Shown here: positions 39,040 to 42,246 of the stretch, one piece after another
How positions within the stretch are numbered: the first letter of the stretch is position 1
Layout: every line of letters begins with the position of its first letter
Assembly: GCA_947478955.1 (NCBI GenBank)
Contig: CANJXJ010000002.1
Location: forward strand, 1,926-65,925
From: Alphaproteobacteria bacterium
GTDB lineage: Bacteria > Pseudomonadota > Alphaproteobacteria > Paracaedibacterales > CAITNM01
Direction of reading: 5' to 3'
Length of the DNA: 64,000 nucleotides
Program-made: the position numbers and the translations under genes
The notes under the pieces: model-generated
What the model was told of the DNA's origin: nothing
The model's input: the letters and a program-made list of their open reading frames with translations, nothing else
The model's database searches: none

Positions 39040-42000
39040 TTAGGCGGGTTTTTTCCTACTAAACATGCCTTTAAATCCGCTTATGGCGTTACCAAAAACT
39101 GATTTCTGTGCAGCCACCGCTGCAGTAGCTGATTGTTGCGCATTAGTGGTAAGAGCGGCTACTTTTTGTTGTTGAGCAGCTACTTGTTGTTGCGCCGCTG
39201 CTTGTTGAGCAGCTATTTGTTGTTGCGCTGCTGCTTGTTGAGTAGCTACTTGTTGTTGCGCTGCTGCTTGTTGAGTAGCTACTTGTTGTTGCGCCGCAGC
39301 TTGTTGAGCAGCTACTTCTTGTGCTGCTGTAGTTGCTGCAGGGGGAGCTGGAGCTACCACGGCTGCAGGAGGTGTATTCGTAGCACGTTCCTGAAGGGCT
39401 GTGGCTTGATCATGCGTAACATTTTTTACAAGGATGGGAGTGGTAGTTTCAGCATAAACAATCTGCACACCTTCTGTGTCTTCAATGTCTCTACCTACTA
39501 CAGCTTCTGTTGCGCCAGTTTTTGCAGATACAATGGGAGGCGTATCTGCGTATACTTTTGCTACACCATTCTCATCAATTGCTGATGGTGGAATTGCTGC
39601 TGCAGCTCTTTGTGCTTCTTTCTCTAGTTCAGCAGCTTTTCTTTGTTTTTCTGCTGCTTCTAGATCAGCTTGTTGGGCAAGCTCTTCAGCTTTTCGTTGT
39701 TCTTCTGCAGCTTGTTTTCTGGATTCTTCAGCAAGTTGGTTGGCTCTTTGACGTTCTTCTGCTGCTTGCCTTGCAGACTCTTCTGCAGCTAGGGATGCCT
39801 TTTGACGTGCATCTTCAGCTGCTTTTGCAGATTCTACTGCAAGTTGAGCTGCTTTTTGTTCTGCTGCTGCTACCTCTGGATCTGTGGACGGTGCAGGGGC
39901 GTTTGCTGCGCTATTTTGATCTGTAGGCGCAGATCCCGATTCACTGGGTGTGGTGTTACTTTGTGGTGGTAGTTGTTGGTCTGCACTAGCAGGTGCTGAT
40001 CCTGCGGGAGTAGTGGGTGCAGCTTGGGCTTCATTGCTAGGTAAGCTAGAAGAAGAGGCCGCACTAGAAGGCGCTGATTCTTGAGTAGGGGATGCAGCTT
40101 GGACTCCATTGGCAGGTAAGCTAGGAGAACAGGTAGTGCTAGCGGGCACCGATCCTGCGGGAGTAGTGGGTGCTGCTTGGACTCCATTGCTGGGTAAATT
40201 AGGAGAACAGGTACTGCTGCCTGGCGTTAATCCCCCAGGGTTAGTACCATTTGGATAGGATCCATCTGGCATTAATCCCCCAGGGTTAGTACCATTTGGA
40301 TAGAATCCATTTTGGTGTATACCAGCGCTATAGCCTACATCCATATATGGGTTTTGCCCATTTCCAAACTGTCCACCAACAATACATTGTGTAGGATAAG
40401 CTTGATGACTTGTCTGCGTTCCATAACTCGGTGCAAATCCATTCCCTATGTATGGTTGATAGGGGTCTTGTGTGTTGATGAACATTCCTTGATTCGCAAA
40501 CTGACCATATTGATTAAATGGTATACCATGCTGGGTATGGAAACTTGAACGAGGATTGAACTGTTGTGAGCCCATTACTCCATCCATATCTTCATCATCT
40601 AAGTCGTCGTCATCATCGTCTAAGTCTGTACTATCTAATCCAAAAGATTGCGTGTGTGCTCTACCTTCGCCAGTTTGGCTAAGGCTATTGAACCATTGAG
40701 CTTGATTCATACTAGGTTGTGGGCATGTTAGGGGCTGTTGCATACTTTGATTTATTCCGCCGAATATACCACCGCCCATAGCCCCTTGGCTTCCAGGCAG
40801 CATGTTGAAGTTGAGACCGCCGGGTTGACCAGGATTTATACCCGGAAGAGGGCACATTATAGGTTGTTGTATGCCTTGCCCTATACCAGTATTTAGGCCT
40901 AGTTGTTGCACGCCGGGATTTATTCTACCAGGTTGCATATTGGGATTGATGCTGAGCTGCGGATATATTACAGGTGCTGTCTGTTGCGTCCCAGGAATCA
41001 TAGCAGGCGGTAACAGAGGTGGCTGCATAGGAGGACGACCTTGCTGCCCAACCATCTCAGGATAGGAGCTAGGTTGCCCCATTGGTGGAGGTGACATCAT
41101 AGGCTGCTGTGGCATAGGAGGACGACCTTGTTGCCCAACCATCCCAGGGTAAGATCCAGGTTGCCCCATTGGTGGAGGTGACATCATAGGCTGCTGTGGC
41201 ATAGGAGGACGACCTTGTTGCCCAACCATCCCAGGGTAAGATCCAGGTTGCCCCATCGGAGGGCGCATGCCCATAGGAGGTGGCATCATCCCATGTTGGC
41301 CCATTGGAGGACGGCCTTGACCCATGGCAGGATTAAACCCATGCGGGCCCATTTGAGAGCGCATGCCCATAGGGGGTGACATCATCCCATGGTGACCTAT
41401 TTGAGGAGACATTCCCCCCATATGAGGTTGCATGTGGTGACCCATTCCAATATTTTGCCCAAAAGGATTATGATTATTAGGGGTTGGGTGCATTCCGCCG
41501 TGAACATCATGCTCACCTATTCCCAGCGCCTTTAGGTAATCAGCTGGCGAGCAAAGAACTTGTGCACCCTTGTCCATAAATCCAAGAATACTATCTGTGT
41601 CGTTGCGTAATTTATTTGCAAATACATTCAGGCGAAGAATTTGACCAGATGCATTTTTAAGGGCTTGTTGCAATTGAGGGTTTTTGGCAGTTTTTAATAG
41701 CTCTTGGTAAAGAGAAATTTTAGTCATGTATTCATCTACACTGCTAATGAACACACGAAGGGCTCTTTCAAAGGTAACAAAGTTTGTTTGTTTTTTTCCT
41801 TGTTGAACAGCAGTTAGGAATGTTAATGGTGCCAGCAATTTTGTTTGAATTTGCGCTTTGCTAAAGGCTTGGCTACTTGAAATGTTTTTAAGACTAAGCT
41901 TTAAAGCATTAAGCTTTTCAGGTGTTAACCCATTTTCTTTAATAGCTAGTCTGTAATATTTTTCCGCGGATTGCTGTAATTGTGGCCCTAATTTGCTCGC

Positions 42001-42246
42001 GGCTGTCATTTTTTGCAGGTTAAATAAGGCCGGAGCTATGCCCTTTATAATTAATTGTCTTACTGCGAGAAGTTCTCCCGAGCCAAAAAATTTATGTAAG
42101 CTTTGTGTGAGCTCTTTATTTCTTTCGGGTGCTATGCAACTAGAGAGAATTGGTAGGTTGCGGATGGCATTTGCCTTCCCACCATCTGCTGCAGCATCCA
42201 GAGAGCTTAGGTACATACTTACAAGAAGAATCCAAGTGATTTTCAT
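39040..42246 (-). CDS. Hypothetical 1068-aa exported low-complexity protein (P/M/G/Q/H-rich, poly-Asp, coiled-coil and Q/A-repeat segments)
   Basis: The leader is MKITWILLVSMYLSSLDAAA. There are 87-bp and 33-bp in-frame repeats. I recognised no catalytic motif, and this is the only long ORF through the region. Confidence 0.7.
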   Translation of the reverse strand: MKITWILLVSMYLSSLDAAADGGKANAIRNLPILSSCIAPERNKELTQSLHKFFGSGELLAVRQLIIKGIAPALFNLQKMTAASKLGPQLQQSAEKYYRLAIKENGLTPEKLNALKLSLKNISSSQAFSKAQIQTKLLAPLTFLTAVQQGKKQTNFVTFERALRVFISSVDEYMTKISLYQELLKTAKNPQLQQALKNASGQILRLNVFANKLRNDTDSILGFMDKGAQVLCSPADYLKALGIGEHDVHGGMHPTPNNHNPFGQNIGMGHHMQPHMGGMSPQIGHHGMMSPPMGMRSQMGPHGFNPAMGQGRPPMGQHGMMPPPMGMRPPMGQPGSYPGMVGQQGRPPMPQQPMMSPPPMGQPGSYPGMVGQQGRPPMPQQPMMSPPPMGQPSSYPEMVGQQGRPPMQPPLLPPAMIPGTQQTAPVIYPQLSINPNMQPGRINPGVQQLGLNTGIGQGIQQPIMCPLPGINPGQPGGLNFNMLPGSQGAMGGGIFGGINQSMQQPLTCPQPSMNQAQWFNSLSQTGEGRAHTQSFGLDSTDLDDDDDDLDDEDMDGVMGSQQFNPRSSFHTQHGIPFNQYGQFANQGMFINTQDPYQPYIGNGFAPSYGTQTSHQAYPTQCIVGGQFGNGQNPYMDVGYSAGIHQNGFYPNGTNPGGLMPDGSYPNGTNPGGLTPGSSTCSPNLPSNGVQAAPTTPAGSVPASTTCSPSLPANGVQAASPTQESAPSSAASSSSLPSNEAQAAPTTPAGSAPASADQQLPPQSNTTPSESGSAPTDQNSAANAPAPSTDPEVAAAEQKAAQLAVESAKAAEDARQKASLAAEESARQAAEERQRANQLAEESRKQAAEEQRKAEELAQQADLEAAEKQRKAAELEKEAQRAAAAIPPSAIDENGVAKVYADTPPIVSAKTGATEAVVGRDIEDTEGVQIVYAETTTPILVKNVTHDQATALQERATNTPPAAVVAPAPPAATTAAQEVAAQQAAAQQQVATQQAAAQQQVATQQAAAQQQIAAQQAAAQQQVAAQQQKVAALTTNAQQSATAAVAAQKSVFGNAISGFKGMFSRKKPA
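39166..39325 (-). repeat. 33-bp in-frame tandem repeat, about 4-5 copies (QQAAAQQQVAT)
   Basis: On the plus strand, ttgttgagcagctacttgttgttgcgccgctgc recurs with single-base variants. Confidence 0.9.
41026..41265 (-). repeat. 87-bp in-frame tandem repeat, about 2.7 copies (29-aa unit MPQQPMMSPPPMGQPGSYPGMVGQQGRPP)
   Basis: Units start at 41026, 41113 and 41200 in plus-strand coordinates. Confidence 0.9.

Follow-up and report, generated by a model that had tools for sequence, protein, structure and literature searches.

TonB, FtsN and TolA typically contain long Pro/Gln-rich spacers; they are exported or periplasmic proteins in which the low-complexity spacer keeps its physical properties over its sequence, and domain II of TolA also supplies a long Ala/Glu/Lys-rich helix. 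Among alphaproteobacteria, the tandem repeat proteins (TRPs) of Ehrlichia and the RickA and Sca proteins of Rickettsia are lineage-specific low-complexity repeat proteins of variable copy number, with several acidic repeat proteins per genome; they use type I secretion system (T1SS) or autotransporter routes, or travel without a Sec leader, and act in host cells. Here we analyse a 1068-amino-acid (aa) protein encoded on the minus strand at positions 39040-42246 of a 64,000-nucleotide stretch of an alphaproteobacterial contig (CANJXJ010000002.1, positions 1,926 to 65,925; hereafter the window), which recalls both groups. Like TolA, TonB and FtsN, it joins a long spacer of conserved character to a putative exported fate; unlike them, it lacks an N-terminal membrane anchor and a C-terminal domain of the TolA, TonB or SPOR type, is not encoded in a tol-pal or exb context, and carries an N-terminal head without a known relative. 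Unlike the Ehrlichia and Rickettsia proteins, to which no sequence similarity was found, it has a predicted Sec leader, no beta-domain and no link to a host.

The gene is real and conserved, belongs to an orphan family, occupies a fixed locus and encodes a leader followed by distinct modules, with repeats that vary. It consists of one uninterrupted open reading frame (ORF) with an ATG start and 1068 codons; with random stop codons at ∼5% at the local GC content, we estimate the chance of an open frame of this length at ∼1e-24. Its end converges on ubiE with a gap of 2 bp and its start is divergent from valS. A preliminary description of this stretch, made by a model from the letters alone, had proposed a single exported-type ORF assembled from several modules, and each element that it named was present when we inspected the ORF, its tandem repeats and the protein itself. 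The features are as follows, repeats being those of Tandem Repeats Finder (TRF) and structures those of AlphaFold 2 (AF2):

39040..42246, minus strand: whole gene, 1068 aa plus stop (ORF list; neighbours by Pfam)
42187..42246, minus strand: predicted Sec-type signal peptide, aa 1-20, MKITWILLVSMYLSSLDAAA (read from the sequence; equivalents in all homologues)
41515..42186, minus strand: helical head domain, aa 21-244, with Cys37 and Cys232 (AF2, alignment A4, HMMER scan)
39880..41514, minus strand: low-complexity linker, aa 245-789, disordered, nearly uncharged, with five Cys (composition)
41025..41406, minus strand: Met/Pro/Gly repeats (TRF and protein-level copies)
40582..40638, minus strand: poly-Asp patch, aa 537-555, LDSTDLDDDDDDLDDEDMD (protein-level reading; not present in orthologues)
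39983..40310, minus strand: two copies of a 45-bp repeat (GFYPNGTNPGGLxPx), then three Cys-containing S/T/P/A units of 75-78 bp (TRF)
39595..39879, minus strand: charged Ala/Glu/Gln/Arg/Lys helix, aa 790-884 (AF2, TRF, periodicity analysis)
39421..39594, minus strand: short duplicated strand-like motif, aa 885-942, ENGVAKVYADTPPIVSAK and TEGVQIVYAETTTPILVKN (alignments and homologue sequences; AF2 confidence low)
39106..39342, minus strand: Gln/Ala helix, aa 969-1047, 11-aa QQAAAQQQVAT repeats (TRF; AF2 predicted local distance difference test, pLDDT, ∼90)
39043..39105, minus strand: basic G/F/M/K tail, KSVFGNAISGFKGMFSRKKPA (protein-level reading)
42247..42367, no strand: divergent promoter region shared with valS (alignment A5, four genomes)

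An exhaustive HMMER scan with aa 1-250 as the query against 1.84 billion representatives matched six proteins, one a spurious Sel1-repeat protein and the others five related clusters: P0001 (E = 1e-153; the same protein, at 1028 aa), P0002 (E = 1e-27; resembling the copy at locus L001), P0003 (E = 8e-23), P0004 (E = 3e-10) and P0005 (E = 4e-7). The head was the sole source of matches to other lineages in this collection, and all five clusters are unnamed or called 'hypothetical protein', with no functional name. Every relative comes from uncultured freshwater alphaproteobacterial metagenome-assembled genomes (MAGs) or metagenome contigs, P0004 and P0011 from a Lake Mendota co-assembly. Searching genome contigs with UbiE recovered two syntenic contigs from stratified-lake MAGs labelled 'uncultured Alphaproteobacteria', each with a minus-strand ORF between ubiE and valS (576 aa and 1147 aa) that aligns with the window protein in the leader, head, charged helix and motif region. 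A scan of genome contigs with the head gave no match, nor did two scans of metagenome contigs. Word-indexed protein searches with the head, alone or as a three-sequence profile, were also without a match, which reflects the sensitivity of the tool, since it recovered the 100%-identical P0001 from the rest of the protein.

Syntenic orthologues were seen at loci L001, L002, L003, L005, L006, L007 and L008. At L001, L002, L005, L007 and L008 they lie between valS and ubiE, and distant orthologues (∼30% identity) sit beside valS at L003 and L006. P0003 and the P0005/P0011 copy are divergent from valS, and on its contig P0004 is three genes from ubiE and the Tim44-like gene. Counted by lineage, five of six are divergent from valS and four have ubiE and the Tim44-like gene nearby; the neighbours shared by the window and its relatives are valS, ubiE, the Tim44-like gene and creD. 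This conservation and synteny point to vertical inheritance as a core gene of the clade.

Besides the synteny described above, the family members share the homologous helical head, conserved Cys, core motifs built on F, D, Y and K and the same architecture. Alignment A4 shows no exception to the first Cys among its seven sequences; the second is present in five of six lineages, and four of the six have a basic C-terminus. Judged from these sequences, the proteins are built as a putative leader, then a helical head bearing a pair of Cys, a linker rich in Q/N/G/S/T/P/M/Y with hardly any charge, a charged helix and, in most lineages, a basic tail. The family is undescribed, although it falls into a well-known general class, that of exported repeat-rich disordered proteins.

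We considered whether the frame might be an artefact, either a spurious reading of repetitive DNA or a gene recently acquired from a eukaryote. Repetitive DNA in this region does open long ORFs in several frames, and local GC is raised. However, across six lineages protein-level conservation is found only in this frame, with a leader and a folded head, the region upstream is conserved, and the GC content at third codon positions (GC3) is genome-like at 0.30. The conservation data refute an artefact, and we assign this explanation practically no weight.

The base composition itself had been noted in the preliminary description as locally GC-rich codons in an AT-rich genome. Local GC does rise, to 0.47-0.48 in the gene against ∼0.40 across the rest of the window, but that background is only moderately AT-rich and the excess is confined to codon positions 1 and 2. 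GC at positions 1, 2 and 3 of the gene is 0.62, 0.49 and 0.30, compared with GC1 of 0.45-0.52, GC2 of 0.31-0.37 and GC3 of 0.33-0.36 in valS, ubiE, the Tim44-like gene and creD. Since GC3 is no higher than in the neighbours, the excess reflects amino-acid composition (Pro, Gly and Ala codons), and the native third-position usage argues against a recent foreign origin.

The protein matches no described family. Neither Pfam nor PHROGs contained a match to the window protein, the homologues had no Pfam match above threshold, and sequence and profile searches of the PDB returned nothing above threshold. A 17-bit match of P0005 to DUF6468 fell short of the 26.9-bit cut-off and was disregarded. In NCBIfam the only match was TIGR02794 (TolA), at 8.7 bits against a 59.45-bit cut-off (E = 0.92) and confined to the charged helix. 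This weak match, the TolA domain II-like composition of that Ala/Glu/Lys/Arg/Gln helix and the long Pro/Gln-rich spacers shared with TonB, FtsN and TolA are what would speak for a divergent copy of a known envelope component, whether TolA, FimV/HubP, PodJ or of the FtsN or TonB type. Such an identity is largely refuted and, in our judgement, very improbable: no TolA_C, LysM, SPOR, TPR or TonB_C domain occurs in any family member, and the TIGR02794 score lies far below its cut-off. TolA domain III is absent by Pfam from both the protein and its homologues, the N-terminus fits a cleavable leader and not a transmembrane anchor, and the locus, with valS, ubiE, the Tim44-like gene and creD, bears no resemblance to a tolQ-tolR-tolA-tolB-pal cluster. 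For FimV/HubP, the combination of LysM domain, transmembrane segment and FimV C-terminal motif was not found and there was no Pfam or NCBIfam match; for PodJ, Pfam showed no TPR or peptidoglycan-binding domain, and the leader would put the whole protein outside the cytoplasm. Pfam likewise showed no annexin domain, leaving the likeness to annexin A7 compositional only, and no C-terminal beta-barrel translocator domain of an autotransporter in the 1068 aa. The protein is not TolA, FimV, PodJ, an autotransporter, an annexin-type protein or a recognised copper protein. The preliminary description had held that its reading would give way to one of a known envelope component if homologues proved widespread in free-living alphaproteobacteria with a known envelope role; this did not prove to be the case, since the homologues, five related clusters among 1.84 billion representatives, are not widespread in free-living alphaproteobacteria and belong to no known envelope family.

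The leader has Lys at position 2, a hydrophobic core of 14 residues and its best -3/-1 cleavage site at AAA|D, with no lipobox, according to rule-based inspection. By the same inspection, the window protein and all six lineages agree with what is expected of Sec and signal peptidase I substrates: a basic N-terminus, a hydrophobic core of 10-15 residues and small side chains at -3 and -1, without a lipobox Cys. Export is likely on these grounds, in line with the Sec-type leader originally proposed.

A helical-looking N-terminal domain had also been suggested, and in agreement, a single-sequence AF2 model of aa 20-250 is predicted to be all-helical, with ten helices, a mean pLDDT of 70.5 and a predicted template modelling score (pTM) of 0.65; the head domain is placed at aa 21-244. 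It is the only conserved globular part of the family. The Foldseek comparison of this model with the PDB, proposed in the preliminary description, gave nothing specific, and the head had no PDB relative by profile either.

The linker is dominated by a few residue types: over aa 245-786, Q/N/G/S/T/P/M/Y make up 72% and D/E/K/R 6%. It opens with an H/M/P/G/Q tract, whose first 175 aa from aa 245 contain 25% P, 18% G, 17% M, 11% Q and 6% H. TRF resolved this part into 3.4 units of 48 bp (16 aa) at 41243-41406 and 2.7 units of 87 bp (29 aa) at 41025-41256 with a 95% match, the 29-aa unit being PPMGQPGSYPGMVGQQGRPPMPQQPMMSP and its three copies starting at aa 329, 358 and 387. Further on, the N/G/Y/Q stretch carries the duplicated 45-bp repeat, and the Cys-containing S/T/P/A units span aa 677-753. 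The linkers of the homologues range from 187 to 542 aa, with 59-75% Q/N/G/S/T/P/M/Y and 2-15% charged residues, and their sequences do not align; the dominant residues are G/N/F with poly-AP at L002, N/Q/S/Y in P0004 and P0005, and P/Q/M in P0003.

A second AF2 model, of aa 786-1068, contains two long helices, at aa 790-883 (pLDDT 93-95) and aa 969-1061 (∼90 over most of its length), separated by a low-confidence segment at aa 884-968. Motifs related to ENGVAKVYADTPPIVSAK and TEGVQIVYAETTTPILVKN, which fall in this segment, recur in homologues as judged by eye. The first helix is charged, has an 18-residue repeat with a hydrophobic period of exactly 3.6, and corresponds to a TRF period of 54 bp. 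In the second, the QQAAAQQQVAT repeats are 33-bp units, 4.7 copies of which lie at 39169-39322, and place V or I every 11 residues. Both periodicities are non-heptad. Such spacing of V or I within a confidently predicted helix of ∼93 residues is shared with the hendecad helices of apolipoproteins, LEA proteins and right-handed coiled-coil stalks; unlike those, the repeat here is Gln/Ala-rich and almost uncharged, and only the periodicity is shared, with no homology found. The tail was also considered as an amphipathic membrane-targeting helix; with a hydrophobic moment of only 0.28, this stays a weak lead.

The repeats differ between two assemblies. At L005, from a separate European Nucleotide Archive assembly, there are zero mismatches in the gene or in the 3 kb on either side, yet the gene lacks exactly one 87-bp and one 33-bp unit and encodes 1028 aa. 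The difference is either copy-number variation within the population or a collapse during short-read assembly, and the copy numbers given here are therefore provisional: TRF confirmed the 87-bp and 33-bp units named at the outset, while how many of each there are is uncertain. Identity between units is 93-95% (TRF), which points to recent slippage.

The P/G/Q/M-rich tracts had been compared with eukaryotic disordered regions, such as annexin A7-type N-termini and amoebal proteins. That affinity proved to be one of composition only, given that no eukaryotic domain was found, that GC3 is native and that the linkers of orthologues differ (G/N/F-rich, poly-AP, N/Q/Y-rich). In the one similarity search that used the low-complexity and C-terminal part as the query, nothing but the cluster of the protein itself was recovered, a weak negative since just 8000 word-sharing candidates were scored. 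The linker does resemble the annexin A7 N-terminus, prion-like domains, abductin and resilin in its amino-acid composition and lack of charge, and short degenerate repeats of this kind predict disorder and cohesive or elastic behaviour; unlike those, it is attached to no eukaryotic domain, uses native codons and differs in composition between orthologues, making this a resemblance and not a membership. Whatever the function, a 'eukaryote-like' composition can arise natively via repeat slippage.

An echo of Met-motif copper sites had been noted as well, and a role as a periplasmic Cu(I) buffer or oxidant sink acting through the Met/His-rich tract would draw on the high Met and His content of the first 175 linker residues, on a Met content that reaches 25% in one 60-aa window and on 12 M-x-M, M-x-x-M and H-x-x-M patterns in the whole linker. 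Between aa 245 and 330 the tract is dense in Met and His, like those of Ctr1 and the CopB-, PcoE- and CusF-type proteins, with M-x-M and M-x-x-M spacing, and Met-rich patches recur in most homologues and in the L006 ORF at 4393-5493 (local maxima 7-18% against a 3% background). Unlike in those proteins, however, the tract is not conserved in orthologues and has neither a recognised domain nor a copper-resistance context: Pfam showed no copper-protein domain and there are no cop, cus or pco genes nearby. His enrichment is unique to this genome, with 3.0% in the linker of the window protein against 0-1.9% in homologues and none in the L002 linker, so that the copper echo did not extend to the family, and the tract is only one sixth of the protein and its least conserved part. 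We regard such a role as improbable, and unlikely as the function of the family.

We tentatively favour, at somewhat less than even confidence, a lineage-restricted exported structural protein of the envelope or surface that serves as a tether or matrix scaffold. Supporting this, as far as sequence comparison goes, are the synteny, the predicted leaders in all six lineages, the Cys pair in five of the six and a linker whose character is kept while its sequence and length vary. Further support comes from the two confidently predicted helices, a basic tail peptide that recurs in exported low-complexity proteins of the clade, the conserved promoter and native GC3; Pfam and NCBIfam also revealed no autotransporter or other recognised secretion domain and no eukaryotic domain. 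The preliminary description had inferred a surface or secreted protein with a host-interaction or scaffold role, and of these the scaffold role fits the build, in which the head is folded, the linker is long and disordered and the helices are long.

From this build we infer exit from the cytoplasm, a final location, a disulfide, binding partners and a scaffold role. The protein would be exported by Sec and its leader removed, leaving a helical head of ∼225 aa that is probably closed by a Cys37-Cys232 disulfide. The ∼540-aa uncharged disordered linker, elastomer- or prion-like, would act as a flexible, cohesive spacer, and the two helices of ∼95 residues, with their non-heptad 18- and 11-residue repeats, would self-associate. 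Head and basic G/F/M/K tail could then bind different envelope partners, making the whole protein a periplasmic or cell-surface tether or matrix component. The linker would be selected for its physical character and not for its sequence, and in this genome the 'eukaryote-like' P/G/Q/M composition would stem from linker turnover by slippage of 33-87-bp units. Should the scaffold reading hold, the protein represents a new bacterial envelope plan, a folded head joined to a very long uncharged disordered spacer and non-heptad helices, and its orthologues form a natural series in which linker character is kept while sequence is replaced, useful for studying the function of disordered regions outside the cytoplasm.

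Several observations weigh against a scaffold. We detected no domain that could anchor the protein (transmembrane segment, lipobox, peptidoglycan-binding domain or beta-barrel), and its retention in the envelope is therefore an assumption. The head evolves fast, with identities of 44, 54 and 30% to the L001, L002 and L003 copies compared with 86, 80 and 56% for ValS, a pattern no less characteristic of surface or secreted proteins that evolve under diversifying or relaxed selection. In the L001 copy (10743-12473) and P0002, ∼70 residues of the head have been lost in three deletions, including the second conserved Cys, which shows that the head tolerates large deletions; this copy also ends in an acidic and not a basic tail. 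Both AF2 models are single-sequence only. Lastly, at least three other ORFs in the window combine putative leaders with acidic and basic low-complexity blocks, which recalls effector-like repertoires.

These last points bear on a rather less probable, though still substantial, alternative: a secreted or surface-exposed effector or adhesin directed at a eukaryotic host, at a prey cell or at a surface. After Sec export such a protein would be released or displayed, its low-complexity tracts would engage host proteins or condensates, and the basic tail would be a second-step secretion or binding signal. Prion-like, FG-like or P/Q-rich linkers would suit this role, as would the fast evolution and variable repeats, the several other leader-bearing acidic/basic repeat proteins and an autotransporter within the same 64 kb, a patatin gene in the locus of one relative, and the confinement of the family to uncultured lineages of ∼40% GC. 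However, no eukaryote-like domain was found in the protein and its low-complexity part matched only its own cluster among the 8000 candidates scored, its linker composition is not conserved and no specific mimicry is thus maintained, its locus is a fixed housekeeping one over deep divergence, and no route across the outer membrane was identified. The window itself encodes DegP, MipZ, FliD, FtsK, FtsZ, AnmK, an SLT transglycosylase, PFK, LexA, HemC, FolD, AroK and an autotransporter, and includes peptidoglycan recycling; with its biosynthetic enzymes, this gene set does not look like that of a strongly reduced endosymbiont, as far as 64 kb can indicate. The proposal of a host-interaction protein thus found no footing: nothing ties the protein to a host, the window has FliD, PFK, peptidoglycan recycling and MipZ, and at least two contigs carrying relatives are of lake metagenome origin. 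Were the effector explanation true, the protein would be a marker of a lifestyle associated with hosts or prey, so far unrecognised, in alphaproteobacteria that are common in lakes.

A wider version of the scaffold reading concerns the three further leader-bearing low-complexity ORFs of the window, at 24881-25615, 31481-32206 and 32305-33093, all with acidic and basic blocks. Peptides like the tail KSVFGNAISGFKGMFSRKKPA occur in the L002 orthologue (KKSFFGSIFGTSKK), in the L006 ORF at 4393-5493 (KNFFGMGKK, twice) and in the ORF at 24881-25615 (FKSMGRGFKKMGRG). Exported low-complexity proteins may make up an entire set in this clade, with the 1068-aa protein as its largest member; the set would combine prion- or elastomer-like linkers, polyampholytes of acidic and basic blocks and a shared G/F/M/K peptide, and would form a gel, condensate or brush in the periplasm or at the surface. 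We consider this unlikely; it would amount to a phase-separating matrix outside the cytoplasm, for which no bacterial precedent is described. An anchor for such a set might be sought by analogy: an N-terminal Ala-Asp motif is reported to mediate peptidoglycan attachment of alphaproteobacterial outer-membrane proteins (PMC10787603). Three of the six lineages have an A-D dipeptide at the predicted cleavage site or beside it.

The individual members of this group differ in arrangement. The ORF at 24881-25615 (plus strand; 244 aa, no Pfam match) has a predicted signal peptide, the basic G/F/M/K block, a His/Ala-rich helical middle and an acidic C-terminus of DDGMSDD repeats. Those at 31481-32206 and 32305-33093 (both plus strand) are adjacent, and each begins like a signal peptide and continues with an acidic Asp/Ser/Gly repeat block (SGDDDSDANA; DAGDTSSD) and, after it, a strongly basic one (KNKIGDAKNKLDGAKNKAKGMV; KKKAAADKKKK). 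Neither belongs to a Pfam family above threshold, their L001 counterparts are at 3693-4103 and 4138-4908, and their repeats also open long ORFs on the opposite strand. Another ORF with a putative leader, at 27886-28620 (minus strand; 244 aa, no Pfam match), ends in a Cys-rich basic C-terminus, GCGCFPCFSGKKKR. At L006, the ORF at 4393-5493 (plus strand, 366 aa) lies downstream of the homologue, with a 130-aa ORF between the two, and runs from a leader through an acidic block and a G/M/P/Y-rich tract to its two terminal KNFFGMGKK copies; tblastn found no counterpart in the window for either of these downstream genes.

Upstream of the gene, positions 42247-42367 are strongly conserved in four genomes, though head identity falls to 30%. 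A sigma-70-like ATGACA-17-TATGAT site faces valS, and towards the low-complexity gene there is a conserved TTAAC-G-T8-ACC block. An upstream TTAA...TTTAC block was considered as a CtrA box and rejected, because its spacing varies between genomes. At the other end, on the strand that continues from ubiE, each 33-bp Gln/Ala unit at 39197-39289 (plus strand) reads as a hairpin with a 7-bp stem followed by a T-rich run. These units might serve as ubiE terminators, although the number of terminator-like sites does not exceed the shuffled expectation.

Elsewhere in the window, a 959-aa ORF at 52199-55078 (plus strand) is Arg/Ala/Leu-rich with a hydrophobic N-terminus and belongs to no Pfam family. 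At 20813-22228 (minus strand), a 471-aa protein with an autotransporter beta-domain shows that a substrate for type V secretion is encoded in the vicinity. The window is alphaproteobacterial and contains a two-piece alpha_tmRNA; this permuted tmRNA lies at 19836-20247 (minus strand), and the tag predicted by ARAGORN is unusually long, ending in VVVAAAA.

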